Positions 11,390 through 51,910 are shown, numbered from the stretch's first letter. The stretch: DNA of 64,000 nt from Patescibacteria group bacterium (GCA_038062015.1 JBBTXZ010000002.1:1266-65265), one strand, 5' to 3'. Numbers and translations are program-made. Notes: generated from the letters alone by a model not told the origin.

Positions 11390-11390
<1 letters not shown>

Positions 11391-25557: not shown

Positions 25558-26338
25558 CTGACCAGCCGCCGTCAACTGTAATATCCGACCCCGTCACATA
25601 ACTTGAAGCGCCTGATGCCAAAAAAACTGCGGCGCCGACAAGCTCTTTTGGTTCGCCGTATCTTTTAATCATGGCCCGTTCAAGCCTCGCAGCGCGAGCT
25701 TCAGGATCAGCATAACTTTTTGCAGTCATGGCTGTATGCATATAGCCGGGGCTAATGCTGTTTACCCTGATTCCATACTTTGCCCAATCTTTAGCCAAAG
25801 CCCTCGTCAAAGAAGCTAAGCCGCCTTTAGCCGCAACGTAAGCCGGATTATTAGAATATCCAAATTTACTGCTTATGCTTGCTATATTGATAATGCTGCC
25901 CTCTTTCTTTGATTTTATCATTTCTCTGGCAACCAGCTGGCTTAGTTGAAAATGAGCAGTTAAGTTGACGGCTATTGTTTTTTCCCATTGATCTATCGGA
26001 TATTCTTCAGATGGGTACCCCACTGTTATGCCGGCGTTATTGACTAAAGTATCAATTGTTCGGCCGGATTTTTTAATTTTTGAAATAATCCTTTCTAAAT
26101 CTTCTTTTTTGCTGATATCGGCATTTATAAAAACTGCTTGGCTTTGCTTTTTAAAAAGTTCTGGTTCTTCCGGATTGATAATATCCACAAAGTAAACAAA
26201 AGCTCCGGCGGCAAGAAAGCCGTTAGCAATTGCTTGACCATTTCCTCTTGCCGCGCCGGTAACTATCGCCGTTTTACCTTCCAAAGAAAAAATGCCGTCT
26301 AAGAATTGGCTGTTTTTTTGCTTACTTTTTTTATTCAT
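25544..26338 (-). CDS. SDR-family oxidoreductase
   Basis: TGAARGNGQAIA Rossmann motif, NNAG, and a YxxxK catalytic dyad region. Confidence 0.8.
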   Translation of the reverse strand: MNKKSKQKNSQFLDGIFSLEGKTAIVTGAARGNGQAIANGFLAAGAFVYFVDIINPEEPELFKKQSQAVFINADISKKEDLERIISKIKKSGRTIDTLVNNAGITVGYPSEEYPIDQWEKTIAVNLTAHFQLSQLVAREMIKSKKEGSIINIASISSKFGYSNNPAYVAAKGGLASLTRALAKDWAKYGIRVNSISPGYMHTAMTAKSYADPEARAARLERAMIKRYGEPKELVGAAVFLASGASSYVTGSDITVDGGWSVSGF

Positions 26339-26542
26339 AACTTAAGAGTCTACCTCTTTTTGTTCTATTTATCAAATCTCCGGAAAAATACTCCAACTGC
26401 TTCCATGCGGATCCGAGGCAGAAGATTGTAGATGGTGTACATTCTCATATTTTAACAAAGGGGTGGTTCCAAGGTATTGAACCATAACATAATTTAGACA
26501 TTTATTATATTTATTTTATAAAAAAACAATAAAATCACAAAA

Positions 26543-27250
26543 CTACTTATCAACACTGATTTCAACAAAAATCCCTTGGCCAAACAAAGACGGCCAGAGA
26601 CGGTTCAAAATCGGCATACCTTCATAAAGATGAATTTTGAAATTCTTATAACTCTGGTTTTTTAGCCACCAAGCCATATCGCGAACTGTCCAAAACCTTA
26701 AATGTTCTGATGGCCGCACCCGCCATTGAAGCGGAAATCGGCCAAAAAGTAACCTAAACCGATGCACAAAAAATCCGGTATTAGGTACGGAAAAAAACAC
26801 TCCTTTTTTCGAATTTTTAAAAGCCCACTTTAAAATTTCTTCCGAATTAGACAAATGCTCAATTACCTCAAAAAGAAAAACATAATCCGCTTGGGGAAGT
26901 CTGTTTAACTCTTCAACTTTTGAAATATCTAAATTAAGTATCTCAATTCCCTTCTCTTTAGCTAAAGCCAAAACCTCTTTTGAAAAATCCACACCAATCA
27001 TCCTGCCTAGCTTTTTTCTTTGATTAATATAAAAAAGAATTCCGCCGTCGCCGCAGCCGACATCAATCACTGAACTTCCCGATTCAATCGCCTTAACTAC
27101 AAAATCAGCTCTCTTTTTTTGAAAGCTATTTAGCGGTTTCTGGGATGCTGACTTTCTTTCTTTCCAATAAAGAGTATAGTCCGGGTCGTTGTCTTTCAAC
27201 GCCGGGTAAATAAATAATTCCTTAAGCCACTTTTTCAAAGTATAGAGCAT
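26543..27250 (-). CDS. class I SAM-dependent methyltransferase
   Basis: VIDVGCGDGGILFYIN motif I. Confidence 0.7.
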   Translation of the reverse strand: MLYTLKKWLKELFIYPALKDNDPDYTLYWKERKSASQKPLNSFQKKRADFVVKAIESGSSVIDVGCGDGGILFYINQRKKLGRMIGVDFSKEVLALAKEKGIEILNLDISKVEELNRLPQADYVFLFEVIEHLSNSEEILKWAFKNSKKGVFFSVPNTGFFVHRFRLLFGRFPLQWRVRPSEHLRFWTVRDMAWWLKNQSYKNFKIHLYEGMPILNRLWPSLFGQGIFVEISVDK

Positions 27251-28272
27251 TAAAAATCCTGGGTTTTTCGAAGCATCTTGATAATCGGAATTTCGGCTTC
27301 CAAAACGGTTTTTACGCCGGTGCCGGTTGCCGCGCTCATCGCTCTCACGGCTTTGACAAGTTCGACAAATTCCTGGGGCTCCAGACTGGCGGCTTGATCG
27401 CCGCCGAACATTTTTTTATCCAAAGTGATATGACGCTCAATCAGTCGGGCGCCGATGGTTGCCGCGGCAACAGAAGCAACAATCCCCTTCTCATGGCCGC
27501 TGTATCCTACTTGTACCGCTGGAAAAAATTTCCTGAATTTAATAATTGTTCTCAAATTCAGGTCCTTTTCTTCGGCCGGATAAGTAGAGACGGTATGAAG
27601 CAGGATTAAATTTCTGGTTCCCAAAATACTAAGCGCCTTTCTGACTTGTTCCATCGTACTCATACCGGTTGAAAGAATCACCGGCCTGCCGGTTTGCTTA
27701 ACTTTTCTTAAAAGCCCGGCATTAGTCAACATCGCCGAAGCGATTTTATGGCAGGGCGGATCAAGTTTTTCGAGAAAATCAAGGCTTTCTTCATCCCATG
27801 GAGAAGCAAAACACAAAAGCCCTTTCTGATTCGCGTAAGAAAACAATTCTCTGTATTCGGCTTCATTAAATTCACGGGCGTATTTTAGATCTCCGTCGGT
27901 AGAATCTTGAAAATCGGATTTGATTAATCGTTCAACCGATTCTTTCGGAAGAGCCTCTCGTTTAATCGCATTTTCCAAAAGATCTCTGGGCACGGCCCGA
28001 GGTTTAGCCAATTCTTCAGCCGAATAAACCATCGGAATAGTTCTTTTTTGAAATTTGACGGCTTGGGCGCCGGCCTCAGACGCTATATCAATCAGTTTTT
28101 TTGCAATCTCCATACCGCCGTTATGGTTAACCCCGATTTCAGCTACAAAAAAAACCGGCTGTGTTCTAGAAACCGGAATTTTACCTAAATAAACATCAGG
28201 CGGTTCTGATGGAATTTTCTTAACAATCCTTACAAATTTAGTGACAGCTCGATTGACCAAATTCGTAAACAT
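27250..28272 (-). CDS. NeuB-family PEP-dependent nonulosonic acid (phosphate) synthase
   Basis: PVFFVAEIGVNHNGGMEIAKKLIDIASEAGAQAVKFQKRT matches the NeuB/NANS N-terminal signature; 340 aa. Confidence 0.8.
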   Translation of the reverse strand: MFTNLVNRAVTKFVRIVKKIPSEPPDVYLGKIPVSRTQPVFFVAEIGVNHNGGMEIAKKLIDIASEAGAQAVKFQKRTIPMVYSAEELAKPRAVPRDLLENAIKREALPKESVERLIKSDFQDSTDGDLKYAREFNEAEYRELFSYANQKGLLCFASPWDEESLDFLEKLDPPCHKIASAMLTNAGLLRKVKQTGRPVILSTGMSTMEQVRKALSILGTRNLILLHTVSTYPAEEKDLNLRTIIKFRKFFPAVQVGYSGHEKGIVASVAAATIGARLIERHITLDKKMFGGDQAASLEPQEFVELVKAVRAMSAATGTGVKTVLEAEIPIIKMLRKTQDF

Positions 28273-34221: not shown

Positions 34222-36012
34222 TTATGATTTATAAATTAAGAAACTTTCGATAACTAAAACATCCATTTCGCTTTTCCTGAATGTATTAATGGCTTCGGCT
34301 GGCGTATTAACTATCGGCTCTCCTTTAAGATTAAATGAGGTATTTAAAACCATTGGCACGCCGGTTCTTTGACGAAATCGGTCAATCAGATTCCAATAGC
34401 GGGGCGAAATCTCTTTAAAAACAAGCTGGGGCCGAGCCGTGCCGTCAACATGAGTAATAGCCGGAATAACGCTTTGTTTTTCTTTTTTTACCGGCACTAC
34501 ATAAAGCATGAATCTCGCCGGATAATGATTTTGGGCGTTGGGAATTTCAAAAAAATCTTCGGCGTATTCAGCTAAAACTGACGGCGCAAAAGGTCTATAT
34601 GGTTCCCGAAACTTAATTTTAGTGTTAACTATATCTTTCATTTCGGCTCGCCTCGGATCAGCGATAATGGAACGGTTGCCCAAAGCTCTCGGCCCCCACT
34701 CAAAACGGCCCTGAAACCAACCGATAACTTTTCCTTTTTCCAAGTTTTCTGAAACAGAATTTATCAATTTTTCTTCATCATCAAAGTATTCAAAACTATC
34801 AATATTTTTATTCCTTAAAGTTTCTTTAATTTCGTCATTTGAATAACTTTTTCCGTAATAAGCATGTTCAAACACAAACTTTCTGTCATTCTTCAAGCCC
34901 ATATGCCAAATTGCTAAAGCCGCCCCCAAAGCTCCGCCGCCGTCGCCGGCCGAAGGTTGGATGAAAATTTCTCTAAAAGGAGTCCCCTGAATAATTTTCC
35001 AATTTGCCACCGAATTTAAAGCCACGCCGCCTGCCAGGCATAATTTATCGCAACCGGTAATCTTATAAGCTTCTTTTGCAAGATTAATCACGCCTTCCTC
35101 TAAAACACTCTGAATTGAAGCGGCAATATCAGCATAATATTCCTGTTCTTTTGCCAACTGTTCAAATTTTTCATCTTCCGGCTTTAACCCGAAATAAGAA
35201 GGCCAACCAGTGGATCTGGTGAAAAATTTTGATTTGGGATCTCGGGGCCGGCCGAACAGCTCAATAAACTTTTTTGAAAATGTTTTTTTGTCTGATCGGT
35301 GAAATAAAAAATAATTAAGATTTAAAACAAATGATCCATCACCAAAAAAAGTAATCAGTTTTTTAATTTTATCATGGTAAATCGGTTTTCCATAAGGAGC
35401 CATGCCCATAACCTTATACTCGCCTTCGTTAACTTCAAAACCCAAAAAAGCCGTAAAAGCCGAATATAAAAGGCCAAGCGAATGCGGGAAATAGACTTTT
35501 TTTAAAACCTTAATCTTGTTACCTTCGCCTATGCCAATAGTTGTCGTAGCCCACTCACCCACTCCGTCAATCGTTAAAATAGCGGCCTTTTCATAAGGCG
35601 AACATAAAAAGGCGGAAGCGGCGTGGGAAAGGTGGTGCTCTGAAAATAAAATCTTATCCGGACTGATTCCTATTTCTTTTGAAATTATTTCCCTTATCCA
35701 AATTTTTGAAATGAATAAGTTTTTCATCCCGTGAATAAAAGCCAGAGGCGAATAAGGAAAGGTTGAAAGAAAAGTTTTGAAAATTCTTTCAAGTTTAAGG
35801 AACGGTTTCTCATAAAAAACCACATGATCTAACTCTTCAAGTTTTATACTCCCTTCTTTTAAAACAAATTCTATGGCGTTTTTAGGAAAATCAGAATCGT
35901 GTTTTTTTCTGGAAAAACGCTCTTCTTCGGCCATCGCTCGAGGAACACCGTTAATAAGCAAGGCTGCTGCTGAATCGTGATAATAAAAAGAGAGGCCCAG
36001 TATCTTACTCAT
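34222..36012 (-). CDS. carbamoyltransferase (NodU/CmcH/TobZ family)
   Basis: ILGLSFYYHDSAAALLINGV...AMAEEERFSRKKHD N-domain (ASKHA-like) and a C-terminal YrdC-like region; 596 aa. Confidence 0.85.
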   Translation of the reverse strand: MSKILGLSFYYHDSAAALLINGVPRAMAEEERFSRKKHDSDFPKNAIEFVLKEGSIKLEELDHVVFYEKPFLKLERIFKTFLSTFPYSPLAFIHGMKNLFISKIWIREIISKEIGISPDKILFSEHHLSHAASAFLCSPYEKAAILTIDGVGEWATTTIGIGEGNKIKVLKKVYFPHSLGLLYSAFTAFLGFEVNEGEYKVMGMAPYGKPIYHDKIKKLITFFGDGSFVLNLNYFLFHRSDKKTFSKKFIELFGRPRDPKSKFFTRSTGWPSYFGLKPEDEKFEQLAKEQEYYADIAASIQSVLEEGVINLAKEAYKITGCDKLCLAGGVALNSVANWKIIQGTPFREIFIQPSAGDGGGALGAALAIWHMGLKNDRKFVFEHAYYGKSYSNDEIKETLRNKNIDSFEYFDDEEKLINSVSENLEKGKVIGWFQGRFEWGPRALGNRSIIADPRRAEMKDIVNTKIKFREPYRPFAPSVLAEYAEDFFEIPNAQNHYPARFMLYVVPVKKEKQSVIPAITHVDGTARPQLVFKEISPRYWNLIDRFRQRTGVPMVLNTSFNLKGEPIVNTPAEAINTFRKSEMDVLVIESFLIYKS

Positions 36013-39900: not shown

Positions 39901-40980
39901 CTAAATAACGCCGGCCAGATAGTGCGGGTCGTTTCTGCACCACGATATAAATCGTGAGATGCCTTCTTGAAGAGAGGTTTGAGGCACAAAATTAAGATGT
40001 TCTTTCGCTTTTGAAATATCAGGACAGCGCCGCATCGGTTCGCCAGCCGGATAACTTTCGGGATAAGGAATTAAATTGTATGACGCGCCGTTGCCTTCCA
40101 GTGATACTACTAATTGAGCAAGATCCTTCATTGAAATTTCATTTGCGTCGTTGCCGATATTGTAGGCCTCGCCCGCTTGACCTTTTGCAAGAACTCTAAG
40201 AAAGCCATCGATAGCATCGGTAATATAACAAAATGTGCGCGTCTGGAGTCCATCGCCGTGCACGGGTATAGGTTTTCTATTTAAAACCATATAAGTGAAC
40301 ATAGGCAGTACCCGGCGATCATTATGAGACATACCCGGGCCAAACACATTAAATGGGCGCACGATTTTTGTCGGCAAGCCAAACTGTTCATTATAAATTA
40401 TAGCCAGGGTCTCGCCTAATCGTTTTGATTCGTCATAACAAGCGCGGGGACCGACAGAAGAAACAAACCCGTGGTATGTTTCAGGCGTCGGAACTGCGGC
40501 TGGATCCGGATCGCCGTAAATTTCGCTGGAGCTGAAAAAAAGAAACCCTTCTAGATTTTTATTTTTTCGTCCAAGATCGAGCAGATTTTTCGCCCCGGAA
40601 ACGGCGCTCTCAATAGTTTCGAGAGGATATTTCTTATAATAAACCGGCGAAGCAAGCCCGGCGGCGTGAATTATATAATGAATGTCTTCCCGCACCGGCA
40701 AAGGATGTATAACATCAGCCCAGACTTCAAGAACATCGGACCGGTCTCGATAGTTAAAATGAGGGTGGCGCTGACCGGTAATATAATTATCAGCTGAAAT
40801 TATCCGGCAAGGCCGGGAAAATACAGTATCGTTCAAATCGCATAAAGCGCCTACGATATATTTACCCAAAAAACCGGCGCCGCCGCTGATTAAAATAGTT
40901 TTGCCTTCAAAATTTTTTGCCGTTTCGCCTAATTTTTTGGTAATAGCGGCTATATCTTCTCTAACTATCTCCTCGTACAT
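39901..40980 (-). CDS. NAD-dependent NDP-sugar epimerase/dehydratase (extended SDR; UDP-glucuronate decarboxylase-like)
   Basis: GKTILISGGAGFLGKYIV; catalytic YDESKRLGE (YxxxK). Confidence 0.75.
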   Translation of the reverse strand: MYEEIVREDIAAITKKLGETAKNFEGKTILISGGAGFLGKYIVGALCDLNDTVFSRPCRIISADNYITGQRHPHFNYRDRSDVLEVWADVIHPLPVREDIHYIIHAAGLASPVYYKKYPLETIESAVSGAKNLLDLGRKNKNLEGFLFFSSSEIYGDPDPAAVPTPETYHGFVSSVGPRACYDESKRLGETLAIIYNEQFGLPTKIVRPFNVFGPGMSHNDRRVLPMFTYMVLNRKPIPVHGDGLQTRTFCYITDAIDGFLRVLAKGQAGEAYNIGNDANEISMKDLAQLVVSLEGNGASYNLIPYPESYPAGEPMRRCPDISKAKEHLNFVPQTSLQEGISRFISWCRNDPHYLAGVI

Positions 40981-40993
40981 AGAATTTATATTA

Positions 40994-42175
40994 TCACACT
41001 ACTTCTCTCGGTGGAATAGGGATTAAGTATCTATAAGAATTATTTGTTTTTTTCTTTATATCATCTAAGTACTCATAAGCAAACACCACTAAAATATCAG
41101 GCTTATGTTCATCTAAATAAGTTTTAGGAACAATCGGGATATGAGTTCCGGGGCTAAAACGATTCTGCTTCAGGGGACTGTCATCAATAATAAACTCAAT
41201 GAGCGACGAATCTATATTCCCGTAATTACAAATAGTGGCGACCCGGGCTGGCGCGCTATAACCGGCCACCTTGAGGCCGGCTTTTTTATATTCATTTAAT
41301 TTTTCACGAAAAGCAGAAATGTAAGAGTAAACTTTTTGTTTAAAGTCTTCTAATTTCAAACTATTTAAAGTAGTTTCTTCTTCGTCAAGAAGATTTTTAA
41401 CGGCGTCTGATATTAAGAAATCTGATCCGTTTTTACGGACAAAAATCCTGAGAGAACCGCCGTGAGGCTCTATTTTTTCCACATCAGATATATACATACC
41501 ATGTCCAGCAAATAATTTTGAAAGTGAAGTCAGCGAATAGTAAAATATTCTGTCCAAATAAAATCTTTCAAATTGAATATCAACTAAAATATTACCGATG
41601 TACTCGACCTCCAGTATAAAAACACCATCATCAGCCATAACTTTTTTTATATCTTCAATAAACTGATGAGGATTCTCTACATGAGTAAAAATACTGCTTG
41701 CCACGACTATGTCCGGACTTTCAAAATCTTTTTTTATCTTTTCTGACGTTTCCGAGTTAAAAAACGAAGTCAGCGTTGTTAATCCATAATCATTGGCTAT
41801 TTTTGAAACATTAATAGATGGATCAACGCCAACAGCTTTTACTCCTAATTGTTTTAAAGGTTTTAATAGTATACCGTCATTAGAACCGACATCAACCACA
41901 AACCGGGCCGAAATAAGCTTCTTGGCTAAATCTTCGAAATGCCTTACCAAACCGGGATTCACTGAAGAAAGATAATAATAATCTTCAAACATCCTTTCGC
42001 GGGAAATCATTTTCCCAAGCTGAACATTTTTGCAGTTTTTACAGAAAAATATCTGAAGCGGAAAAAAATCTTCTGTCTCAAAATTCTCTTTCTTGGGATA
42101 CTTATTCGCCAAAGGCTGACTCCCGAGATCAAGAAACAAAAAAATGTCCGAATGATTGCACAAATGGCATTTCAT
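40994..42175 (-). CDS. NDP-hexose C-methyltransferase (TylC3/NovU-like; Zn-ribbon + SAM MTase + C-MT C-domain)
   Basis: N-terminal Cys pairs CHLC...CKNC; SAM motif VVDVGSNDGILLKPL; about 390 aa as in sugar 3-C-methyltransferases. Confidence 0.6.
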   Translation of the reverse strand: MKCHLCNHSDIFLFLDLGSQPLANKYPKKENFETEDFFPLQIFFCKNCKNVQLGKMISRERMFEDYYYLSSVNPGLVRHFEDLAKKLISARFVVDVGSNDGILLKPLKQLGVKAVGVDPSINVSKIANDYGLTTLTSFFNSETSEKIKKDFESPDIVVASSIFTHVENPHQFIEDIKKVMADDGVFILEVEYIGNILVDIQFERFYLDRIFYYSLTSLSKLFAGHGMYISDVEKIEPHGGSLRIFVRKNGSDFLISDAVKNLLDEEETTLNSLKLEDFKQKVYSYISAFREKLNEYKKAGLKVAGYSAPARVATICNYGNIDSSLIEFIIDDSPLKQNRFSPGTHIPIVPKTYLDEHKPDILVVFAYEYLDDIKKKTNNSYRYLIPIPPREVV

Positions 42176-42196
42176 AGTAAGAATAATATCTTCGTT

Positions 42197-42724
42197 TTAG
42201 GGACTTTTCAAGGGGATATTATTAACAATTTCCCATTGATCAACGGCCCCAAAAGCCCGGCAAAGACAGATTGAGTTAACTGTAAAGCTTAGGGATTTAA
42301 TCGTTGAAGAATTAAATAAACGTATAGCTTTGTCTTTTAAACTATCACTGATACTCCCATATACCACACTCATATGGGGATTATAAGCATACTTTTTGTT
42401 AAAAAGTTTTTGAGCAAGATTATTTGTCCCCATAAGTCCTTTTGATTTTCTGCATCTCAAAAAAATAGATTTGTAAAATTCGTATGACTTAACCGGATTT
42501 ATAAAGGTAATCTTGAAAGGAGCAGTTTCCCGGGCGATTTGCTTCATTATCTTTATTATCTTTTCGGGTTTAAACTTAACGTCATTAATCAAAGTTACAT
42601 GGGGCTTAAAAGAAATAGTGTTGGTTTGTTTATTTACATTATTTAAAAAACCGGCCATAAATTCCAGTTTTTTATTATCAGGAACCAACCATAAAGAATA
42701 TTCTTTTAATGAATTATCCTTCAT
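42197..42724 (-). CDS. 2H phosphoesterase (LigT/cyclic phosphodiesterase-like)
   Basis: two H-x-[TS]-x motifs (HVTL and HMSV) about 80 aa apart; 175 aa. Confidence 0.5.
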   Translation of the reverse strand: MKDNSLKEYSLWLVPDNKKLEFMAGFLNNVNKQTNTISFKPHVTLINDVKFKPEKIIKIMKQIARETAPFKITFINPVKSYEFYKSIFLRCRKSKGLMGTNNLAQKLFNKKYAYNPHMSVVYGSISDSLKDKAIRLFNSSTIKSLSFTVNSICLCRAFGAVDQWEIVNNIPLKSP

Positions 42725-43566
42725 TAATTTTTCTTTAGTATATCTTTGAATACCAGCCGCAGGCGTTTTCTAAGTTCCGGATGACGAAGAGCAAAGATAA
42801 GTTCTGTTTTAATAAGATCAGCCTTATTCCCGGTATCAAAATGTCTATTTTTGCAAGTATAAGCGCATAGTTTATAATCTTTGGCGTAATCACGAAGAGC
42901 ATTAGCCAGCTTAACTTCTTCATTTGGCCCTCTTTCTTTTAAGAGTTTCCCAAGATAACCAAAGATCTTTGGCGTGAGAATATACTTTCCGGTCATAGCG
43001 TATTCGCTGGGCGCTTCTTTGGGCTCTGGTTTTTCGATTATTGACTTTAAAAAATGAATCCTGCCATCGCTTTTTTCTGGATCAATTATGCCATACTGTC
43101 TGCTTTTGCTGCGGTCAATTTTTTCAACTGAAATAACCGGAATTTTATTTTTCAAATAAATATTTTTCAATTCGCCGATAAGCGAAGTCCCAGGAAAGGA
43201 AATAAGATCACCCATCGTCACCGCGAATGCTTTTTCCCGTTTGAGAATATTCCTAGCTTCAAAAAGGCACTGGCCATCACCTAAGCGCTGGTCAGTTTCT
43301 AAAAATCTAAGGTTAATATTAGAAAACTCTTTTAATAATTCTCTAGCTCCTTTGCTTTTCAAAAAATTCCTCAAGTCTTTTCTCTCAACATGGGTGATAA
43401 AAATAACATTATGAATGCCAGCCTCATAAGCTTCTTTAATCAAATAATAAATGATTGGTTTATCAACCAACCTTAATAATTCTTTAGGCGTAACATAGGT
43501 TATAGGCCGCAATCTTGTTCCAGCTCCGGCAACGGGAATAACAATTGTATTAACAGCATCTTTCAT
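42724..43566 (-). CDS. sugar-1-phosphate nucleotidyltransferase (UTP--glucose-1-phosphate uridylyltransferase, GalU-like)
   Basis: VIPVAGAGTRLRPITYVTPKELL...DKPIIYY. Confidence 0.8.
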   Translation of the reverse strand: MKDAVNTIVIPVAGAGTRLRPITYVTPKELLRLVDKPIIYYLIKEAYEAGIHNVIFITHVERKDLRNFLKSKGARELLKEFSNINLRFLETDQRLGDGQCLFEARNILKREKAFAVTMGDLISFPGTSLIGELKNIYLKNKIPVISVEKIDRSKSRQYGIIDPEKSDGRIHFLKSIIEKPEPKEAPSEYAMTGKYILTPKIFGYLGKLLKERGPNEEVKLANALRDYAKDYKLCAYTCKNRHFDTGNKADLIKTELIFALRHPELRKRLRLVFKDILKKN

Positions 43567-43639: not shown

Positions 43640-44017
43640 TCACTTTCCGATGACTTGACTTGCGTCCGGGTGCGACGGCCAGCGAATCGTATCGCCGAAT
43701 GCCGGCACTTCTTTCACGATGACCCGCTTCTTGGTTCCGGGCGGAAGTATGATAAATTCATGCCTATCCCCCCTCAACGTAATCTCCAACTTCTCACCAT
43801 TTGGCAGCTCTAACTCAAATCTGAGCACGCCTCCATAGATGGTGATGAACTCGACACCAGCAAAGGTTTTCTGATCGTAATCAAAAGGTTTGTCGTAATG
43901 CCAAAGCTTGATTTCGAGATCGGCACTATGTGCTAAACCCTCTTGCATATGACCAACAGCCCAACCATTTGTGCAAGACGAGTTTATCTGTTGAGCGTTT
44001 CCGGTGATGATTTCCAA
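43640..44017 (-). CDS. hypothetical small beta-rich (cupin-like?) protein, GC-rich
   Basis: 125 aa; about 50% GC vs ~38% background; no firm family. Confidence 0.35.
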   Translation of the reverse strand: MEIITGNAQQINSSCTNGWAVGHMQEGLAHSADLEIKLWHYDKPFDYDQKTFAGVEFITIYGGVLRFELELPNGEKLEITLRGDRHEFIILPPGTKKRVIVKEVPAFGDTIRWPSHPDASQVIGK

Positions 44018-44028
44018 GACTTCCTCCT

Positions 44029-44859
44029 TTATGGCAACCTACCGGGCCAATGATGGGTATATTCCAAAACCAAATCGGCAAGTCCCTGATTTACCGCCAA
44101 AACCCAATCGCAGTTGACGTTATCCCACCGAAGCGGATTACCGTAGGGATCACAGGCAACCCCTCCGGCTTCTTGAACCGCGAGAGCCATTGCGGCGGCA
44201 TCCCAGATTTTGGCGATTCCGAGATTATAGTAAACGCCGGTCTGACCCAAAAGAACCCTGCGGCCGCCTTCCACCGCGGCCATTGCACTCAACATGTTGA
44301 AACGCTGCGACAGAGGTTTCAACACCAGATCGAAAACTTTCTGTTTGTGACTCCACGAACCAACGTCTGTTCCGATCTGGGTCTTATCCATCACGCCGTG
44401 CCAATATATCTCTATCGGCATTGGCACCCGGCAGCCAGATGTCAAAACCCAACAACCCTTATCTTTCTCGGCAGTAATAAGCATATTACGAACCGGGAAA
44501 TAAGTGGCTGAACAGACTGTCTGGCCAGTCCGCAGAGTGCAGGCAGTCACGCCGAATTCATCCAAACCGTTGAAGAAATTCGTCGTGCCGTCAAGCGGAT
44601 CGAAAACAGTGCAGTCAGGTGGTATTTCTCTGGCATTCTCCTGTTCTTCGGCAACAATCGTTTCTGCCGGCATGGCCCGGCTGAAAATTGAGAGTCCCTT
44701 TTTTAAAGACTCTCGGTCAGCTGTCGTGGAAAAGTGTTGACCAGGGCTTTCGTTTTTCTCTACAACTCCCTGATCTTCTTCACGCAGAGAAATCACCAGT
44801 TCTCCGCAAGCCAAAACGACCTCTCTAAGCACATCAAGTATCGCCATACGACACCTCAA
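44029..44859 (-). CDS. inositol monophosphatase-family phosphatase (IMPase/CysQ/FBPase-like)
   Basis: DPLDGTTNF and WDAAAMALAVQEAGG motifs; GC-rich. Confidence 0.8.
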   Translation of the reverse strand: MRCRMAILDVLREVVLACGELVISLREEDQGVVEKNESPGQHFSTTADRESLKKGLSIFSRAMPAETIVAEEQENAREIPPDCTVFDPLDGTTNFFNGLDEFGVTACTLRTGQTVCSATYFPVRNMLITAEKDKGCWVLTSGCRVPMPIEIYWHGVMDKTQIGTDVGSWSHKQKVFDLVLKPLSQRFNMLSAMAAVEGGRRVLLGQTGVYYNLGIAKIWDAAAMALAVQEAGGVACDPYGNPLRWDNVNCDWVLAVNQGLADLVLEYTHHWPGRLP

Positions 44860-44924: not shown

Positions 44925-46181
44925 TTACTTTTTCAAACTATGGAAAAAATCCCAGAGTTTTTGGGCCACTGATTCGTGGCTAAAGTTGGCAATCATAAAT
45001 TCACGGGCCGCTTTACCTAGGCGCTCACGCAAATTTTTATCTTTTCCTAATTTTAACATCGGATCATAAACACCCTGAACATCATAAGGCGGTCCAACCA
45101 AAAAACCTGTTTCGCCGTCTTTAACCACTTCGTCCATAGAACCGGAACGGGTAGTTATAACCGGGAGCTCCATTAAAGACGCTTCCATCGTGGCGTAGCC
45201 TAATTGGTCTTCCCAACCTTTGTGAGGTAAACTGGGATAAACAAAGACGTCAGTTACCGAAAGCAATTCTCTCATTTCCTCATGGTCGATCCACGGAAAC
45301 CGATAGATTCGTTCTCTGAATTGAGAACCATTTATAAGCCCGTTAATCTCTTTTTCATAATCATCTTCACCCGTACCGACAATATACAAAACTGCATTTG
45401 GTATTTCTTTTGCCAAATTATTAAATGCCTTGATAATCAAATGAATGCCTTTTCTAAAACTGATTGAACCGACAAAAGAATAAACGATTTTACCCTCAAG
45501 GTTTTGACCGCGAAACTTTTTTGGAATATTTAATTTTTTGAAAAAATGACCGTTCACACCGCTGGCTGGAATCAAGGGATGGAGCCGCCCGGGAATGAAA
45601 CTATCAATTATCTTCCGGGCTTTCTGATTCCCGCAAATAACCCCGTCGCTGAATAAAAGACTAAATTTCAAAATAAAAAGTTTTATCCGGCCGCGCAATC
45701 CAAAAAGTTTTTCCCGATAATGTATGTTTTCCCAGGTCAAACAAAAGAATTTCGCGCCGTATAGTTTAGTCCAAATTAACTGCCAGGTAGTTGATAAAAG
45801 AGGCGGCTCGCTGCAGGCAAAGACAATGTCAATTTTTTTCTTAAATCCTAAACGCCACAGCCAAAACGGAAAAAACGGCGTTAAGCCTTTTAAAAGCCCG
45901 CCGATCAAAAAATAGTTAGAGTGGTAAAACCAAGTTCGCGCTCCAAAGACATTTTTCTTTTCCGGCGTCCGGTAAACAACTTTTCCACCTTTAATAGGCC
46001 ATTTTGAAGGCAGTAAAAAATAAAGCTCATCGCCATCGGGACTAGCCCCCACACTCATCGAGCGATTACCGCTTTGCGGTCCAGTTTTTAAACTTTCGCT
46101 CGTATGAGTGTGGGGGTAAAAATCAAAAACCTCTAAAATATTCTTTCTAACATAAGGGAAACCAGTAATAAGTATCTTCAT
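44925..46181 (-). CDS. GT4-family glycosyltransferase carrying an in-frame palindromic-element insertion near the N-terminus
   Basis: N-terminus MKILITGFPYV; C-terminal HKGWEDQLGYATMEASLMELPVITT; residues YPHTHTSESLKTGPQSGNRSMSVGASPDG are encoded by element copy B. Confidence 0.65.
   Translation of the reverse strand: MKILITGFPYVRKNILEVFDFYPHTHTSESLKTGPQSGNRSMSVGASPDGDELYFLLPSKWPIKGGKVVYRTPEKKNVFGARTWFYHSNYFLIGGLLKGLTPFFPFWLWRLGFKKKIDIVFACSEPPLLSTTWQLIWTKLYGAKFFCLTWENIHYREKLFGLRGRIKLFILKFSLLFSDGVICGNQKARKIIDSFIPGRLHPLIPASGVNGHFFKKLNIPKKFRGQNLEGKIVYSFVGSISFRKGIHLIIKAFNNLAKEIPNAVLYIVGTGEDDYEKEINGLINGSQFRERIYRFPWIDHEEMRELLSVTDVFVYPSLPHKGWEDQLGYATMEASLMELPVITTRSGSMDEVVKDGETGFLVGPPYDVQGVYDPMLKLGKDKNLRERLGKAAREFMIANFSHESVAQKLWDFFHSLKK
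46046..46117. repeat. GC-rich palindromic mini-element, copy B (19-nt arms cccccacactcatcgagcg / cgctcgtatgagtgtggggg) inside a GT4 gene
   Basis: inverted repeat with 1 indel and an internal accgc-ttt-gcggt hairpin; translated in-frame on the minus strand. Confidence 0.55.
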
Positions 46182-46852
46182 TGCTTTTTTGCTTTTACGA
46201 CGAATTGACGGACGAAAAGACTAGGCCACAACTTTAGAATCTTAGTTAGTTTGCCGGGGAAAATAATATGTTTTTCATTGGTAATTGTAAAGCCGCTTTC
46301 GGCTAAAACTTTTTTTAAATAAGGATAGGTAAACCAACGAATATGCCCAAAATCAAACATACCCTCTCTTTCGTATTTGAAAAAGCCAAAAAGGAAGCGA
46401 AAACGGTTGGTCCAGGTAAGAAAATTAGGAGTAGTTAAAATAATCTCTCCGGCCGGCTTTAATACCGCCGAAGATTTTTTTAAAACATAGACTGGATCAA
46501 ATACATGCTCTAAAATTTCAGATAAAATCACCAAATCAAACTTCTGACTCAAAATATCAGCTGACCACTCGCTTTCAACATCAAAAACATAAACTTTATC
46601 AAGCACTTTTTTGGCTTGGGCCGCGGCTGATTCTGAAATTTCAATCCCGGCGACATAATGGCCAAGTTTTTTAATTTCCCGGCCGAGGCGGCCGGAAGCA
46701 CATCCGACTTCAAGAACTCTTTGCTTCGACTTCCTACCCAAAAGTGATAAAATCCTTTTTAGCCGGGTATGGCTGACGCCGTAATTCAAGCTCTTATTCT
46801 CATAGTGAGATTTTTTAGTCAATTGATTCATAAAGTATTCATAATCTAGCAT
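46178..46852 (-). CDS. class I SAM-dependent methyltransferase
   Basis: VLEVGCASGRLGREI motif I. Confidence 0.7.
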   Translation of the reverse strand: MLDYEYFMNQLTKKSHYENKSLNYGVSHTRLKRILSLLGRKSKQRVLEVGCASGRLGREIKKLGHYVAGIEISESAAAQAKKVLDKVYVFDVESEWSADILSQKFDLVILSEILEHVFDPVYVLKKSSAVLKPAGEIILTTPNFLTWTNRFRFLFGFFKYEREGMFDFGHIRWFTYPYLKKVLAESGFTITNEKHIIFPGKLTKILKLWPSLFVRQFVVKAKKQ

Positions 46853-46899: not shown

Positions 46900-47934
46900 A
46901 TGCCCAGACAAAATAAGACTAAAACTGCTCTAATTTTTGGGGTCACCGGCCAAGACGGCAGTTATTTAACCGAATTGCTTCTAAAAAAGGGTTATCAAGT
47001 TCATGGAATTATCAGAAGAGCTTCTACTTTTAATACCGGGAGGATTGACCATATTTTCCAGGACCCTCATGAAAAAAACCTGAAGCTCGTCTTGCATTAC
47101 GGCGACTTAGCTGACGGAAACACCATTCGAAAACTTATATATAAAGTCCAGCCTGATGAAATATATAATCTGGGTGCCCAGTCCCATGTCCGGGTTTCTT
47201 TTGATATTCCGGAATACACCGCAAACATTACGGCTCTTGGCGTTTTAAGAATATTGGAAGCAATCAAAGATTTTCAGCAAAACGGCGGCAAAAAAGTTAA
47301 ATTTTATCAAGCCAGCTCAAGTGAGATGTTCGGCTCTGCTCCCCCGCCCCAAAACGAAAGTACGCCTTTTAAACCAGAAAGCCCTTATGGAATCGCTAAA
47401 GTTTTTGGCTATCATGTTACCAAATTATATCGCGAAGCCTATGGCATTTTTGCAGTAAACGGAATTCTTTTTAACCACGAAAGTCCTAGGCGCGGTGAAA
47501 CTTTTGTCACCAGAAAAATTACCCGAGGCATTGCCCGAATTTTAGCCGGCCTTGATAAAAAAATATACTTAGGCAATTTGGAGGCCCGGCGCGACTGGGG
47601 CTATGCACCCGAATATATGGAAGCGGCATACCTCATGATGCAGAAATCAAAGCCGGATGATTACGTCATCGGCACCGGCGAAAGCCATTCGGTTAAAGAA
47701 TTTCTGGAAGAAGCTTTTAGTTTAGTCGGCATTAAAAACTGGAAAAAATATATCGGCATAGATCCGCGCTATTTTAGGCCAAGAGAAGTAACCAGCCTTA
47801 TCGCTGATATAAGTAAAGCAAAAAAAGAACTTGGCTGGAAACCAAAAACAAAATTTAAAGATCTAGTAAGAATAATGCTTAAAGAAGATCTAAAAAAACA
47901 CAACCTCTCTGATATTGCCCGAAAAATCAAATAG
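46900..47934 (+). CDS. gmd: GDP-mannose 4,6-dehydratase
   Basis: [31 protein letters not shown]...; catalytic YGIAK; 344 aa. Confidence 0.9.
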
Positions 47935-47944
47935 GTATTTTCAA

Positions 47945-47989
47945 ACCAAAAAGACGCAGTGAGTATTCCCCTAAAACTCACTGCGTCTT
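47945..47989 (-). terminator. rho-independent terminator for the GC-rich gene 48011..48772 (13-bp perfect stem)
   Basis: agacgcagtgagt / actcactgcgtct stem with attcccctaaa loop; T-run (ctttttgg) on the minus strand. Confidence 0.5.
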
Positions 47990-48010
47990 CGCTTGCGAAA
48001 GAACTAAGGG

Positions 48011-48772
48011 CTACGAAGTCACTCTTTCTCTAAGCAGCTGGACCTCACACTCCACTGCCTCGATGAGTGAAGTGAGCTGAAGCATCCGTTTCTTGTAGTC
48101 GGTGAAGCCTTCCTCGGCGGCGGTTTGCTCTTGAGGGTGGATATAATCCACTACCACCTCTCCCACTCTCTGGCCTTCCGTAATCGCCCGAACTAACGGA
48201 ATAAAAATGGAATCCCAGCGATCGCCGTAGTATTTTGATCCATCAAGGGACTTCCCATCATAGGCGAGAAAGTATTTTGCCGCTTCAGTGGAAAAGGCGC
48301 GCGGGCCAAACCAAACATCCAGCGCCTTACCGGTCAGCAGACGGAACCCATCATTGCCGTAGAGCTCCGCATGCATTTGAAACTCGGGGTACGAGGCAAG
48401 GCAGTCCCTTCTTCGAGGCACGACGATCTCATACTGGCCATCGAGAATTGGCTGGACCATTTGATGGATGAATGACACCAGAGGATTCTTTTCCGGCTCC
48501 ATCCACACAACCACTCCATCCTCTCCAGCCAAGCGTACTGCTTCTCTGATGGCTTGGCGGCGGCTCAAACCCATCGTCCCCTTTTCCTCGGCCAGTAAGA
48601 CCGCACGCAAATCAATGAGCCGAGCTTTCACCTCCATGGAAGGAGAACCGTCGACAACCACAATCGGAAGGCTCGAGCTGGTTGCCGACCTGACTGTCTT
48701 GAACGCTTCTTTGGCCCTGACTTCGTCCGGCGACCGATACCAAGTAGTCGTAGCAATCACAACCCGTCCCAC
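48011..48772 (-). CDS. hypothetical protein, strongly GC-rich (~55%); possible GT-A-like nucleotide-sugar transferase
   Basis: 253 aa; PIVVVDGSPS segment faintly GT-A-like; composition very different from its neighbours; has its own terminator. Confidence 0.35.
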   Translation of the reverse strand: MGRVVIATTTWYRSPDEVRAKEAFKTVRSATSSSLPIVVVDGSPSMEVKARLIDLRAVLLAEEKGTMGLSRRQAIREAVRLAGEDGVVVWMEPEKNPLVSFIHQMVQPILDGQYEIVVPRRRDCLASYPEFQMHAELYGNDGFRLLTGKALDVWFGPRAFSTEAAKYFLAYDGKSLDGSKYYGDRWDSIFIPLVRAITEGQRVGEVVVDYIHPQEQTAAEEGFTDYKKRMLQLTSLIEAVECEVQLLRERVTS

Positions 48773-48907
48773 TTCATACCTCCAATCGAAAAATTCTAAT
48801 CCGCTTAAATACTTGCTATAAATTACAGTAATATATTTTAATTAAAAAGTCAAGTTTACTTAGATGTATTTTGATGTTTTAATTAATAGCGGCTTCAAAT
48901 AATTTCA

Positions 48908-50086
48908 ATGATTAAACTGATCAAATCAACCTTCTATAACGAGGCTGAAACTAAAGATAAGCTGATAAAATTCATAAAAACCAAGAGCCAGCTTAGTTTC
49001 GGGTCCGAGTGCGAAAAGTTTGAAAAAAACTTTGCCAAATACCAAGGAAGAAAATTCTGCGTTTTTTTTAACAGCGGCAGTTCGGCTAATTTAGCTTTAA
49101 TCCAAGCACTTTTAAATCTGGGGAAAATTAAAAAGGATAACACCACCGCTTTTTCTGCCTTAACTTGGTCAACTAATGTGATGCCTTTTATTCAACTCGG
49201 CCTTGAAGCTCTGCCGGTTGATGTCGAACTTGAAACTCTTAATGTTTCGAGCCGTAAATTTCTTGAATTTTTAAAACACTATCAGGTCAAGGTCTTTTTT
49301 CTGACAAATTTACTCGGTTTTTGCGATGATATAGATAAAATTAAAGAAATTTGCGATAAACGGGGGATAATTCTTTTGGAAGATAACTGCGAGGCATTGG
49401 GTACGGTTTATAAAGGTAAAAAACTTGGCAATTTCGGTCTTGCCAGTACATTTTCTTTTTATGTCGGCCACCATATGTCAACTATTGAAGGCGGGGCGGT
49501 TTGTACTAACGATAAAGATTTAGCCCAAATGCTTAAAATCGTCCGGGCTCATGGCTGGGATAGAAATCTTAATCCTAATGAACAAAAAAAAATAAGAATC
49601 GCTTTTAATAATCACTCTGACTTTTACGCCCGTTATACTTTTTATGATTTGGGTTATAATTTAAGACCCACGGAAATAAATGGGTTTCTCGGTAATAATC
49701 AGCTTAAGTTTATTGATAAAATCATAAAACAAAGAAACAAGAATTTTTTGCAATTAGCAAAACATATTTATAAAAATAATGGCCGCTATCTGCCGATAAA
49801 ATACAATCACATTGATTTCGTTTCCAGCTTTGCCATGCCGGTTGTTTGCAAAAACTCTAAAATAAAAGATGGCCTGGTTTCAACCTGCAAAGATAAAATT
49901 GAAATCAGGCCGATTCTATCGGGCAATGTACTCCAACAGCCATTCGCTAAAAAACACCTTACTCCCAAAGGCCATAAAATTAATTGTCCTAATGCCCGCC
50001 TGATTCATGAACAGGGTTTATATTTTGCCAATAATCCGGAACTTACTAAAAAAGAAATGAATCAAATTGTGAGTATCTTTGCATAG
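48908..50086 (+). CDS. DegT/DnrJ/EryC1-family PLP enzyme with His replacing the Schiff-base Lys (ColD-type GDP-4-keto-6-deoxymannose 3-dehydratase-like)
   Basis: FNSGSSANLALIQA; active-site block STFSFYVGHHMSTIEGG where a Lys is normally found; no E1-type Cys cluster. Confidence 0.65.
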   Translation: MIKLIKSTFYNEAETKDKLIKFIKTKSQLSFGSECEKFEKNFAKYQGRKFCVFFNSGSSANLALIQALLNLGKIKKDNTTAFSALTWSTNVMPFIQLGLEALPVDVELETLNVSSRKFLEFLKHYQVKVFFLTNLLGFCDDIDKIKEICDKRGIILLEDNCEALGTVYKGKKLGNFGLASTFSFYVGHHMSTIEGGAVCTNDKDLAQMLKIVRAHGWDRNLNPNEQKKIRIAFNNHSDFYARYTFYDLGYNLRPTEINGFLGNNQLKFIDKIIKQRNKNFLQLAKHIYKNNGRYLPIKYNHIDFVSSFAMPVVCKNSKIKDGLVSTCKDKIEIRPILSGNVLQQPFAKKHLTPKGHKINCPNARLIHEQGLYFANNPELTKKEMNQIVSIFA

Positions 50087-50088
50087 AT

Positions 50089-51054
50089 ATGAAACTAACC
50101 GATAAAACTTCGATAAAACTCAGTTCAAGTAAAATACTTTTAACCGGAGGCGCCGGTTTTTTAGGTTCTCAAGTTTATAAAAAACTAATTGAGCGGGGCG
50201 TTAAACCCAAAAATATCTTAATCCCCCGCTCTAAAAATCTTGATTTAAGAAATTTTGAGAATAGCCAAAAAGCAGTAAAAAATAAAGATTTAGTTATTCA
50301 TATAGCCGGTACTGTCGGCGGAATCGGCTTCAACCGGGAACATCCGGCTAGGGCTTTTTATAATAACGCCGCGATGGCTCTTAATTTAATTGAAGCCTCG
50401 TGCCGGACCGGGGTTCAAAAGTTTGTCGGCATCGGTTCGGTCTGTGCTTACCCAAAATTTACGCCCGTGCCATTTAAGGAAACAAACTTATGGGACGGTT
50501 ATCCCGAAGAAACAAATGCCTCTTATGGCTTAGCCAAAAAATTTATGATGGTTCAATCGCAAGCCTATGCCCAAGAATACGGTTTTCCGGCGATTCATCT
50601 TTTAATGGTTAACCTTTACGGGCCGAGGGATAATTTTGACCCTAAAAGCTCTCATGTCATCCCGGCTTTAATTAAAAAAATTCACGAAGCAAAAACAAAG
50701 AATAGTAAATTTATTGAAGTTTGGGGAACCGGTAAGGCCAGCCGCGAATTTCTTTATGTTGAAGATGCCGCTGAAGCAATTGTTTTGGCGACTGAAAGAT
50801 ATGAAAAGCCCGAACCGGTGAATCTTGGCTCTGGAATGGAAATCACAATTAAGGATTTAGTTAAATTAATCTGTAAGCTAATGAACTATAAAGGTCAAAT
50901 AAAATGGGATAAAACTAAGCCTGACGGCCAACCAAGACGTGCTCTTGATGTTTCTTTAGCTAAAAAAGAATTTGGCTTTAAAGCCAAAACCAGTTTTGAA
51001 AAAGGCCTTAAAAAAACAGTCGATTGGTACCTAAAAAACCAAGACCGAATTTAA
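50089..51054 (+). CDS. GDP-L-fucose synthase-family epimerase/reductase (Fcl/ColC-like)
   Basis: KILLTGGAGFLGSQV; YGLAKK catalytic pair; 321 aa; immediately after the ColD-like gene. Confidence 0.7.
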   Translation: MKLTDKTSIKLSSSKILLTGGAGFLGSQVYKKLIERGVKPKNILIPRSKNLDLRNFENSQKAVKNKDLVIHIAGTVGGIGFNREHPARAFYNNAAMALNLIEASCRTGVQKFVGIGSVCAYPKFTPVPFKETNLWDGYPEETNASYGLAKKFMMVQSQAYAQEYGFPAIHLLMVNLYGPRDNFDPKSSHVIPALIKKIHEAKTKNSKFIEVWGTGKASREFLYVEDAAEAIVLATERYEKPEPVNLGSGMEITIKDLVKLICKLMNYKGQIKWDKTKPDGQPRRALDVSLAKKEFGFKAKTSFEKGLKKTVDWYLKNQDRI

Positions 51055-51055
51055 G

Positions 51056-51910
51056 ATGATCACTTCCAGAAAATTTAAATTCGGCCGGTCAGGATTAGGC
51101 AATTGGCTTTTTAACTATGCCGGAACGAGGCTTTACGCCGAAAAAAACGGTTTTGATTTTGCGATGCCTGACTGGATCGGTACCAGAATTTTCCAGAATA
51201 TTAAACCTTGGACAGCGACGGAAAAAATCAAATCTTTTTTCTGCCGCGAAACCCAATTAGATGATTTAGATTCCTACACTAAACTTGATGCTCTTTTATG
51301 GTTATTCTCCAAAAATATAAAACTGCCCCAAACTCAAAGCCTGGAATCGCTTTATGAAAAACCAAAAGACAATATCAGTTTATACGCATACTTGCAGGAT
51401 GAATTCAGTCTTCAGCTTCTTAAACAAAACCGCGAAAAAATAAAAGACTGGTTCACATTTAATGAAAAAATACAGAAAGAATTCCAAAAACAAACTAAAG
51501 ATTTAAAGCCTTGGATAGGCGTTCATATAAGAAGAGGAGATTATATAAAACTCGGGATCAGCTTACCTGTTTCACAGTATAAATCTAAGCTTGATGAAAT
51601 ATTAAAGCAACTGCCTAATTATAAGGTTTTTATCGCCACCAATGATAGAAACATTATCTCGGAGTTCAAAGATTATAATTTATTGAAGGCATCTAATCCT
51701 CTATCTGATATACCTGATTATGTTTTTGATTTCTGGATGCTGGTTAATTCAGAATGGATTATCGGCGGTGGCTCAACCTTTTCCTGGTGGGCGGCATTTT
51801 TAAGCGATAAAGACTATTATCATAGCCCTCTCCTTACTAACTTTTGGACAAAAGATTATAGACCGGAATTCGCACTCCAAGATTTCTCTAAAGATTCCGC
51901 TATTAAATAA
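51056..51910 (+). CDS. GT11-family alpha-1,2-fucosyl(6-deoxyhexosyl)transferase
   Basis: N-terminal GRSGLGNWLFNYA and GT11 motif I GVHIRRGDYIK. Confidence 0.75.
   Translation: MITSRKFKFGRSGLGNWLFNYAGTRLYAEKNGFDFAMPDWIGTRIFQNIKPWTATEKIKSFFCRETQLDDLDSYTKLDALLWLFSKNIKLPQTQSLESLYEKPKDNISLYAYLQDEFSLQLLKQNREKIKDWFTFNEKIQKEFQKQTKDLKPWIGVHIRRGDYIKLGISLPVSQYKSKLDEILKQLPNYKVFIATNDRNIISEFKDYNLLKASNPLSDIPDYVFDFWMLVNSEWIIGGGSTFSWWAAFLSDKDYYHSPLLTNFWTKDYRPEFALQDFSKDSAIK

Follow-up and report, generated by a model that had tools for sequence, protein, structure and literature searches.

A predicted GDP-L-colitose module with a ColD-type dehydratase in a surface-glycan island of a Patescibacteria group bacterium

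In a DNA stretch of 64,000 nucleotides from a Patescibacteria group bacterium (GCA_038062015.1, JBBTXZ010000002.1:1266-65265; the whole stretch is referred to as the window, and positions are counted from its first letter), we analyzed a gene module at 46900-51910 that probably serves the synthesis of GDP-L-colitose and the attachment of colitose, perhaps alongside fucose, to a lipid-linked cellular glycan. Colitose is 3,6-dideoxy-L-xylo-hexose, i.e., 3-deoxy-L-fucose. An initial annotation of the window had proposed a pathway for GDP-colitose or a related 3,6-dideoxyhexose, and this is supported as the best functional reading by the data presented here. The four module genes it had named and a fifth gene on the opposite strand, termed X253, were all recovered as open reading frames (ORFs) exactly where it had placed them, and profile scores assign the products of the four to Gmd, the DegT family, the Fcl family, and GT11-like enzymes. 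The five genes are arranged as follows (aa, amino acids; GT, glycosyltransferase):

46900-47934, plus strand: gmd, GDP-mannose 4,6-dehydratase (344 aa; NCBI MEK7536908.1)
48011-48772, minus strand: X253, GT-A-fold glycosyltransferase-like protein (253 aa; NCBI "hypothetical protein AAB584_00475")
48908-50086, plus strand: predicted ColD-type 3-dehydratase (392 aa; MEK7536910.1; NCBI "DegT/DnrJ/EryC1/StrS family aminotransferase")
50089-51054, plus strand: Fcl-family epimerase/4-reductase (321 aa; MEK7536911.1; NCBI "GDP-L-fucose synthase")
51056-51910, plus strand: predicted GT11-like GDP-L-6-deoxyhexose transferase (284 aa; NCBI "alpha-1,2-fucosyltransferase")

The same proteins are present in a Patescibacteria metagenome-assembled genome (MAG) at NCBI as well as in metagenomes from the Hainich aquifer and other groundwaters, with an identical gene order. 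Their public names at NCBI describe a fucose pathway plus an aminotransferase.

The 392-aa protein encoded at 48908-50086 belongs to the DegT family (PF01041, 203 bits, residues 14-390; fold type I, DegT/DnrJ/EryC1). Its best match among solved structures is ColD of E. coli O55 (2gms, 197 bits), ahead of E1 (131 bits) and GDP-perosamine synthase (94 bits). The initial annotation had reported a histidine at the position of the lysine that binds pyridoxal phosphate (PLP), which was confirmed by alignment: the protein contains the motif SFYVGHHMSTIEGG, whose first His falls on His188 of E. coli ColD, and the window sequence GHHMST lies opposite SHHIAT of ColD, with His188 in the column of the catalytic Lys. 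Because the ColD mutants deposited in the PDB as 2r0t (H188K), 3b8x (H188N), and 3gr9 (S187N/H188K) alter exactly this column, the exchange of Lys for His is verified residue by residue. The catalytic His is invariant in 27 of 27 members of the window-type family. According to a 2022 review, all NDP-sugar 3-dehydratases carry His in place of the catalytic Lys (PMC8987622). Two types are described there: E1 and SpnQ bind a [2Fe-2S] cluster via four Cys residues and require a reductase, while ColD is cluster-free, hydrolyses the enamine, and uses glutamate to regenerate pyridoxamine phosphate (PMP) (PMC8987622). The four-Cys segment of E1-type enzymes (CYCAPGCDNTC) has no counterpart in the alignment of the ColD-like protein; the E1 motif RDWGRDCYCAPGCDNTCKK aligns onto the Cys-free window segment RAHGWDRNLNPNEQKK, which matches RAHGWTRNL of ColD. 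The best NCBIfam match of the protein is RfbH (NF011936) with 197 bits, far under the cut-off of 423.

Further support comes from residues outside the catalytic motif. Arg219, Asn251, Glu332, and Arg334 of the window protein, which correspond to Arg219, Asn248, Glu329, and Arg331 of ColD, are invariant across the family; from the structures of the Holden laboratory, we take these four residues of ColD to contact the substrate. Invariant or nearly so among the 27 members are His188, His189, Asp159, Glu162, Ser183, Trp217, Arg219, Asn248, Arg250, Glu329, Arg331, and Pro332, of which Arg219, Glu329, and Arg331 distinguish the family from DegT proteins of the Lys type in the same loci. On the basis of His188, the missing iron-sulfur (Fe-S) motif, and these signature residues, we filed the product of 48908-50086 as a predicted ColD-type, Fe-S-independent 3-dehydratase.

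The NCBI name of this protein points to a different function, namely an aminotransferase producing a GDP-4-amino-4,6-dideoxy sugar similar to perosamine. Such an activity would be in line with SpnQ, a His-type enzyme that transaminates in the absence of its reductase (PMC8987622), and with the fact that Ser187 of ColD, one of the two residues whose mutation confers transaminase activity on that enzyme, corresponds to Gly187 in the window protein and to Gly in 26 of the 27 family members. This position is a weak criterion because Ser187 is reported to vary among the dehydratases that have been characterised (bioRxiv 10.1101/2021.09.04.459008). Moreover, ColD and E1 showed no transaminase activity under similar conditions (PMC8987622), the catalytic Lys is replaced throughout the family, the match to perosamine synthase is much weaker than that to ColD, and transamination would leave the downstream Fcl-type 4-reductase without a keto group to act on. 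We regard an aminotransferase as very improbable.

The gene at 46900-47934 is identified by its profile score as coding for a true Gmd, since the protein reaches 501 bits with TIGR01472 (equivalog cut-off 415). The solved structures it matches best are without exception genuine GMDs (MUR1 with 451 bits, that of E. coli with 408 bits), and it is 52% identical to the O-antigen Gmd of E. coli O55. It is the only clearly assignable 4,6-dehydratase near the module.

The Fcl-like protein scores 286 bits with NF047922, under the equivalog cut-off of 500, and among solved structures it matches GDP-fucose synthases best (210 bits). It keeps Ser107, Cys109, Tyr136, Lys140, and His179 (E. coli Fcl numbering), i.e., the catalytic triad together with the epimerisation pair Cys109/His179. 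The initial annotation had proposed a phylogeny of Fcl versus ColC as a check, which did not prove decisive. Using ColD, ColC, WbgN, and the colanic-acid Fcl of E. coli O55:H7 as references, we found the pairwise identities uninformative for this purpose, as the window protein shows 36% identity with ColC and 37% with Fcl, compared to 39% between ColC and Fcl themselves. In a neighbor-joining (NJ) tree, the Fcl proteins linked to His-type DegT enzymes branch in at least eight separate places, among them E. coli ColC and the deep clade described below. They are thus polyphyletic, which means that ColC is not a clade and that its phylogeny cannot decide the question. The window protein groups with that of locus L035 at a bootstrap value of 100. 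Judged from its residues and relatives, it is a usual member of the Fcl lineage whose gene adjoins the ColD-type gene, and it was presumably recruited to colitose synthesis in a ColC-like role.

The 284-aa transferase matches PF01531 with 28.5 bits (threshold 23.9), limited to residues 147-253 in its C-terminal half. The HxRRGDY motif noted in the initial annotation is indeed present as HIRRGDY at residues 157-163, and Arg159, Gly161, and Asp162 are invariant in the family. The same motif-bearing half aligns with the colitosyltransferase WbgN of E. coli O55 (23% identity over 159 aa, E = 3e-9). An AlphaFold2 model with a mean predicted local distance difference test (pLDDT) score of 93.2 retrieved GDP-fucose-dependent fucosyltransferases as all of the top 50 matches with Foldseek (FUT8, POFUT1, NodZ, and POFUT2), and searching the PDB with the family profile yielded only FUT8, POFUT1, POFUT2, and NodZ at E < 0.01. 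Because no GT11 structure was among the Foldseek matches, the fold is assigned at the superfamily level. WbgN and human FUT2, both GT11 enzymes, accept either GDP-L-colitose or GDP-L-fucose as donor, from which the authors of that study conclude that the product depends on which substrate is available (PMC11987014). The window transferase is therefore compatible with colitose but does not prove it. The relatives of the enzyme occur in mixed contexts, namely with the trio of gmd, ColD-like, and fcl genes in L114 and without it in L115-L117, so that this subfamily is not diagnostic of colitose.

The ColD-like and Fcl-like genes are separated by 2 nucleotides, and the Fcl-like and transferase genes by 1 nucleotide. 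The trio was found again in four other loci (L035, L114, L018, and L120) at 49-87% identity, with an adjoining GT11-like gene in L035 and L114. L035 is a near-ortholog of the window locus (DNA identity 77-79%). The trio proteins of L114 show identities of 69/55/65%, and the trio genes overlap in L114, L018, and L120. Direct adjacency of ColD-like and Fcl-like genes was also recorded in L035, L114, and L013. The ColD-like ORF of L035 (L035:1801-2742) comprises 313 instead of 392 aa, which points to a frameshift, to a pseudogene, or to an error in the assembly.

To place the ColD-like protein in its family, which has thousands of members in metagenomes of the candidate phyla radiation (CPR) and of DPANN archaea, we compared 25 loci of species-representative genomes (L007-L031) that code for proteins 51-68% identical to it and considered their neighbors within 8 kb. 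These loci come from Levybacteria, Roizmanbacteria, Saccharimonadales, Yanofskybacteria, DPANN archaea, a Chitinophaga, and MAGs labelled Gammaproteobacteria. Their usual neighbors are GT2/GT4 enzymes and generic short-chain dehydrogenases/reductases (SDRs) rather than CDP-glucose pathway genes, and relatives are named "CDP-6-deoxy-D-xylo-4-hexulose-3-dehydrase" at JGI. We rejected a CDP-sugar route of the E1 type: besides the missing Fe-S motif and these neighbors, the nucleotidyltransferase upstream of the module resembles GalU, and at 39901-40980 there is only a generic SDR. Gmd was absent within 8 kb in 23 of the 25 loci, and by the classification used, 12 of them had no Fcl-family ORF. 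Several MAGs labelled "uncultured Gammaproteobacteria" (L008, L009, L014, L017, L020, L023, L029, and L031) contain ColD-like genes 61-68% identical to that of the window, and some of these loci have clusters of neighboring genes in common with Patescibacteria-labelled loci; their taxonomic labels may be unreliable.

In addition to the Gly at position 187, several observations weigh against a colitose pathway. Identity between the ColD-like protein and E. coli ColD is only 34%, and the C3-dehydratases of Campylobacter jejuni, which are 62-67% identical to ColD, use a GDP-heptose (PMC10440746). The substrate of the window protein is therefore not assignable by similarity, and its assignment rests on gene context. 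Within the family sample, a true Gmd is encoded within 8 kb in 2 and an Fcl-family protein in 13 of the 25 loci. A metagenome scan with the Fcl-like protein retrieved 79 loci, 42 of them with informative flanks, and its nearest relatives (55-69% identity) mostly belong to gmd-fcl pairs without ColD: a true Gmd is directly adjacent in 18 of the 42, 16 of which have no His-type DegT gene in the locus, and a His-type DegT gene is adjacent in 6. In the NJ tree, the ColD-linked subclade of the window protein with those of L035 and L013 is weakly supported, at a bootstrap value of 65%, or 37% with L018 added, and we did not use this tree to assign function. Furthermore, an opposite-strand gene separates gmd from the ColD-like gene, so the four genes do not form one transcript, and none of the genes manB, manC, and gmm was found in the 64-kb window.

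Part of this evidence would fit a plain GDP-L-fucose module, in which Gmd and Fcl feed an alpha-1,2-fucosyltransferase and the DegT gene either works in a different pathway encoded by the island or is inactive on the Gmd product. In favor of such a module are the relatives of the Fcl-like protein that lie beside Gmd without a His-type DegT gene, the fucose pathway names at NCBI, and the usual lack of a nearby Gmd in the window-type ColD-like family. It is difficult to reconcile with the ColD-like gene ending 2 nucleotides before the start codon of the Fcl-like gene, with the recurrence of the compact trio as overlapping genes in L114, L018, and L120, and with catalytic and signature residues that are intact and invariant in the ColD-like protein; nor is there another clearly assigned 4,6-dehydratase nearby. 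We consider it unlikely that the module makes GDP-L-fucose only.

A 3-dehydratase might also contribute to a different 3,6-dideoxy product, either because another reductase, such as a flanking SDR, sets another configuration at C4 and C5, because a flanking methyltransferase O-methylates the sugar, or because the substrate is not a GDP-hexose (e.g., a GDP-heptose). The two flanking genes in question are the following (SAM, S-adenosylmethionine):

46178-46852, minus strand: SAM-dependent methyltransferase (PF13489, 73 bits), next to gmd and also present in L035
51903-52937, minus strand: extended SDR of the generic NDP-sugar epimerase/dehydratase family (PF01370, 180 bits), convergent with the transferase gene

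Both are kept in L035, where the DNA identity with the window is 79% for the methyltransferase gene and 78% for the SDR gene (L035:5716-6249), and where a NanM-like sugar O-methyltransferase is encoded as well. The SDR passes no NCBIfam equivalog; the methyltransferase is a possible tailoring enzyme whose membership in the module is uncertain. In C. jejuni, the relatives of ColD mentioned above act on GDP-6-deoxy-4-keto-heptose, and different C4-reductases yield different 3,6-dideoxy epimers (PMC10440746). Many ColD-like family members also lack Gmd and Fcl neighbors. On the other hand, the dehydratase of the window is above the Gmd equivalog threshold with only true GMDs among its solved-structure matches, and the gene packed tightly against the ColD-like gene is the Fcl-like one. 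No heptose-activation genes of the GmhA, HddA, and HddC types were detected among the window ORFs scanned; together with the equivalog-level Gmd, this led us to disfavor a GDP-heptose route. Overall, we assign a small probability to a 3,6-dideoxy product other than colitose.

For the preferred GDP-L-colitose pathway, the following sequence of reactions can be proposed. Gmd would produce GDP-4-keto-6-deoxy-D-mannose, from which the ColD-type enzyme, judged by the chemistry of its homologs, would expel the 3-hydroxyl group with the aid of PMP and His188 as acid/base, yielding GDP-4-keto-3,6-dideoxy-D-mannose. PMP would be regenerated from L-glutamate, making an Fe-S cluster and a reductase unnecessary. 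The SDR of the Fcl lineage should then catalyze C5 epimerisation and C4 reduction with NAD(P)H. Because colitose is the 3-deoxy form of L-fucose, the usual fucose stereochemistry of Fcl would turn the 3-deoxy intermediate into GDP-L-colitose. The GT11-like enzyme, and possibly X253 as well, would transfer the sugar onto a repeat unit linked to lipid, and this unit would subsequently be flipped and polymerised or ligated in the setting of what appears to be a Wzx/Wzy-type surface-glycan island. Since the Fcl-like protein is of the lineage found in ordinary gmd-fcl pairs, and since either donor is accepted by GT11 enzymes, some GDP-L-fucose synthesis and fucosylation may occur alongside.

X253, the product of the gene between gmd and the ColD-like gene, has no Pfam or NCBIfam match. 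Its very confident AlphaFold2 model (pLDDT 96.8) has the fold of GT-A glycosyltransferases and retrieved GpgS, mannosylglycerate synthase, GtrB, and DPMS with Foldseek at TM-scores of 0.5-0.62, and its family of about 139 clusters from CPR and DPANN, which is unannotated, has an invariant EPEK where GT-A enzymes have DXD. The initial annotation had described the gene as a GC-rich insertion interrupting the module. Its GC content is indeed 54%, compared to 36-41% in the neighboring genes, and the corresponding slot of L035 (L035:1335-1796) is occupied by a Gmm-type Nudix gene (NF011963, 65 bits; 35% identity to E. coli O55 Gmm), so the X253 gene is a replacement in the window lineage. The idea of an interruption was abandoned: relatives of X253 are encoded beside ColD-like genes in L013, L024, and L031 and between gmd-DegT and fcl in L119, and in L120 two of them follow gmd-ColD-like-fcl in tandem. 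Given this recurrence, X253 is probably a functional partner rather than an interruption, and we regard it as the likely second transferase of the module. Other relatives are encoded within a peptidoglycan-synthesis cluster (MraY-Mur-FtsW-MurG, L118) and beside NeuB (L121).

The window contains the same four enzyme classes as the GDP-L-colitose pathway of E. coli O55/O111 and Yersinia pseudotuberculosis (Gmd, ColD/WbdK, ColC/WbdJ, and WbgN). Both have a ColD-type enzyme with His188 and the conserved signature residues and without an Fe-S cluster motif, an Fcl-family reductase beside ColD, and a GT11-type transferase with the HxRRGDY motif. They differ in the absence of manB, manC, and gmm from the window cluster and in its extra GT-A gene between gmd and colD, and the window proteins share 34, 36, and 23% identity (the latter in the C-terminal half) with ColD, ColC, and WbgN of E. 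coli. Patescibacteria are generally regarded as lacking lipopolysaccharide (LPS); the acceptor therefore cannot be a classical O-antigen on lipid A. A second comparison concerns classical gmd-fcl operons with a GT11 enzyme, such as the colanic-acid pair or systems of the Helicobacter pylori FutC type, since the Gmd and Fcl-like proteins of the window stem from a lineage that forms adjacent gmd-fcl pairs in many metagenomic loci, some with GT11. Unlike these operons, the window has a ColD-type gene between gmd and fcl, which is expected to channel the 4-keto intermediate into the 3-deoxy series. The GDP-3,6-dideoxy-heptose pathway of C. jejuni HS:5/HS:11 proceeds in a similar manner from a GDP-sugar 4,6-dehydratase via a ColD-type C3-dehydratase (PLP, glutamate) to C5 epimerisation and C4 reduction (PMC10440746), but it acts on a heptose and employs a separate epimerase and reductase, whereas the window encodes a true Gmd and apparently a single bifunctional Fcl-type enzyme. 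Finally, E1 (RfbH/DdhC/AscC), which works with an E3 reductase, is likewise a DegT-fold 3-dehydratase with His for Lys, from which the window protein differs by the absence of the four-Cys motif, the RfbH score under the cut-off, and the lack of a cytidylyltransferase or CDP-glucose dehydratase nearby.

The arrangement looks like the result of a ColD-type gene having been inserted into a gmd-fcl-fucosyltransferase operon. A more far-reaching proposal, which we put forward only tentatively as a whole, combines several statements: colitose synthesis would arise by one such insertion into a pre-existing operon, any Fcl and GT11 enzyme would tolerate the 3-deoxy substrate, and "ColC" would denote a recurrent role of Fcl rather than an enzyme family. 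Taken together, the very large and so far unrecognised ColD-type family, a deep Fcl-like clade described below, and the GT-A family would then reflect widespread glycosylation with 3,6-dideoxy sugars on LPS-free CPR/DPANN envelopes, and some Gmd-unlinked members might make undescribed 3-deoxy sugars.

3,6-Dideoxyhexoses such as colitose are classically seen as O-antigen sugars of Gram-negative pathogens, and the initial annotation had considered the pathway notable in this type of genome. Given the thousands of ColD-like members in CPR and DPANN metagenomes, this point is weaker than it had seemed, although our literature search found no paper tying colitose to CPR or Patescibacteria. The module is a further example of a known pathway that is under-annotated in public databases; for ColD and ColC, annotations exist from other uncultured bacteria (PMC8204192). 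More noteworthy than the module itself are three by-products of the analysis, namely the polyphyly of the ColC role, the ColD-like family, which is large and occurs partly in contexts independent of Gmd, and the unannotated GT-A family. If the colitose assignment is true, colitose-type 3,6-dideoxyhexoses would be common on LPS-free, host-attached, ultra-small groundwater bacteria and archaea, the combination of the public names "aminotransferase" and "GDP-fucose synthase" would systematically hide colitose pathways, and the gain of one gene would provide a simple evolutionary route from fucosylation to colitosylation. For annotation, the analysis yields as rules the His/Lys column, the missing Fe-S motif, and the gene context, plus a candidate new glycosyltransferase family.

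Among the relatives of the Fcl-like protein, we observed a deep clade (bootstrap 100) that is 38-42% identical to the window protein and keeps all catalytic residues. It was seen only beside window-type ColD-like genes (L011, L012, L016, L017, L020, and L029), located about 1.8 kb or less downstream of them and directly adjacent in L012, L016, L017, and L029. This clade is a candidate for a dedicated colitose-type synthase of CPR bacteria. Position 107 of the Fcl proteins is Ser in 14 of 22 proteins linked to His-type DegT enzymes and in 2 of 33 linked to Gmd only, the other 31 of which have Thr. We set this residue aside as evidence, since the proteins compared are not independent samples and Ser occurs in E. 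coli Fcl as well.

The 64 kb around the module form a large surface-glycan island coding for an initiating phosphoglycosyl transferase (Bac_transf), a Wzx-like flippase, a Wzy_C/ligase-like protein, many GT4/GT2 enzymes, and several methyltransferases. Scans for promoters and terminators gave results at chance level, and no tRNA or Rfam element was detected. The Wzy_C domain (O-antigen ligase/polymerase-like) is part of a 747-aa protein with C-terminal tetratricopeptide repeats, encoded at 11390-13633 on the minus strand of a host expected to lack LPS. At 24817-28272 and 34222-36012, genes for a nonulosonic-acid branch (NeuB-family synthase and CMP-sugar-type cytidylyltransferase), a glycerophosphotransferase, and a carbamoyltransferase are present, and their occurrence in one island implies a chemically complex glycan. 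A second sugar-nucleotide block at 39901-43566 on the minus strand encodes a GalU-like nucleotidyltransferase, a 2H-phosphoesterase-like protein, a C-methyltransferase, a generic SDR, and a GFO/IDH/MocA oxidoreductase. The C-methyltransferase has the Methyltransf_13/14 architecture known from NDP-hexose C-methyltransferases, and the product of the block may be a branched or 3-keto-derived sugar. Two more GC-rich genes (48-51% GC versus a window mean of 39%) follow at 43640-44859 on the minus strand, coding for a protein of the inositol-monophosphatase family and a 125-aa protein without a family match. Together with the X253 gene, they suggest a mosaic island composed of pieces acquired by horizontal transfer.

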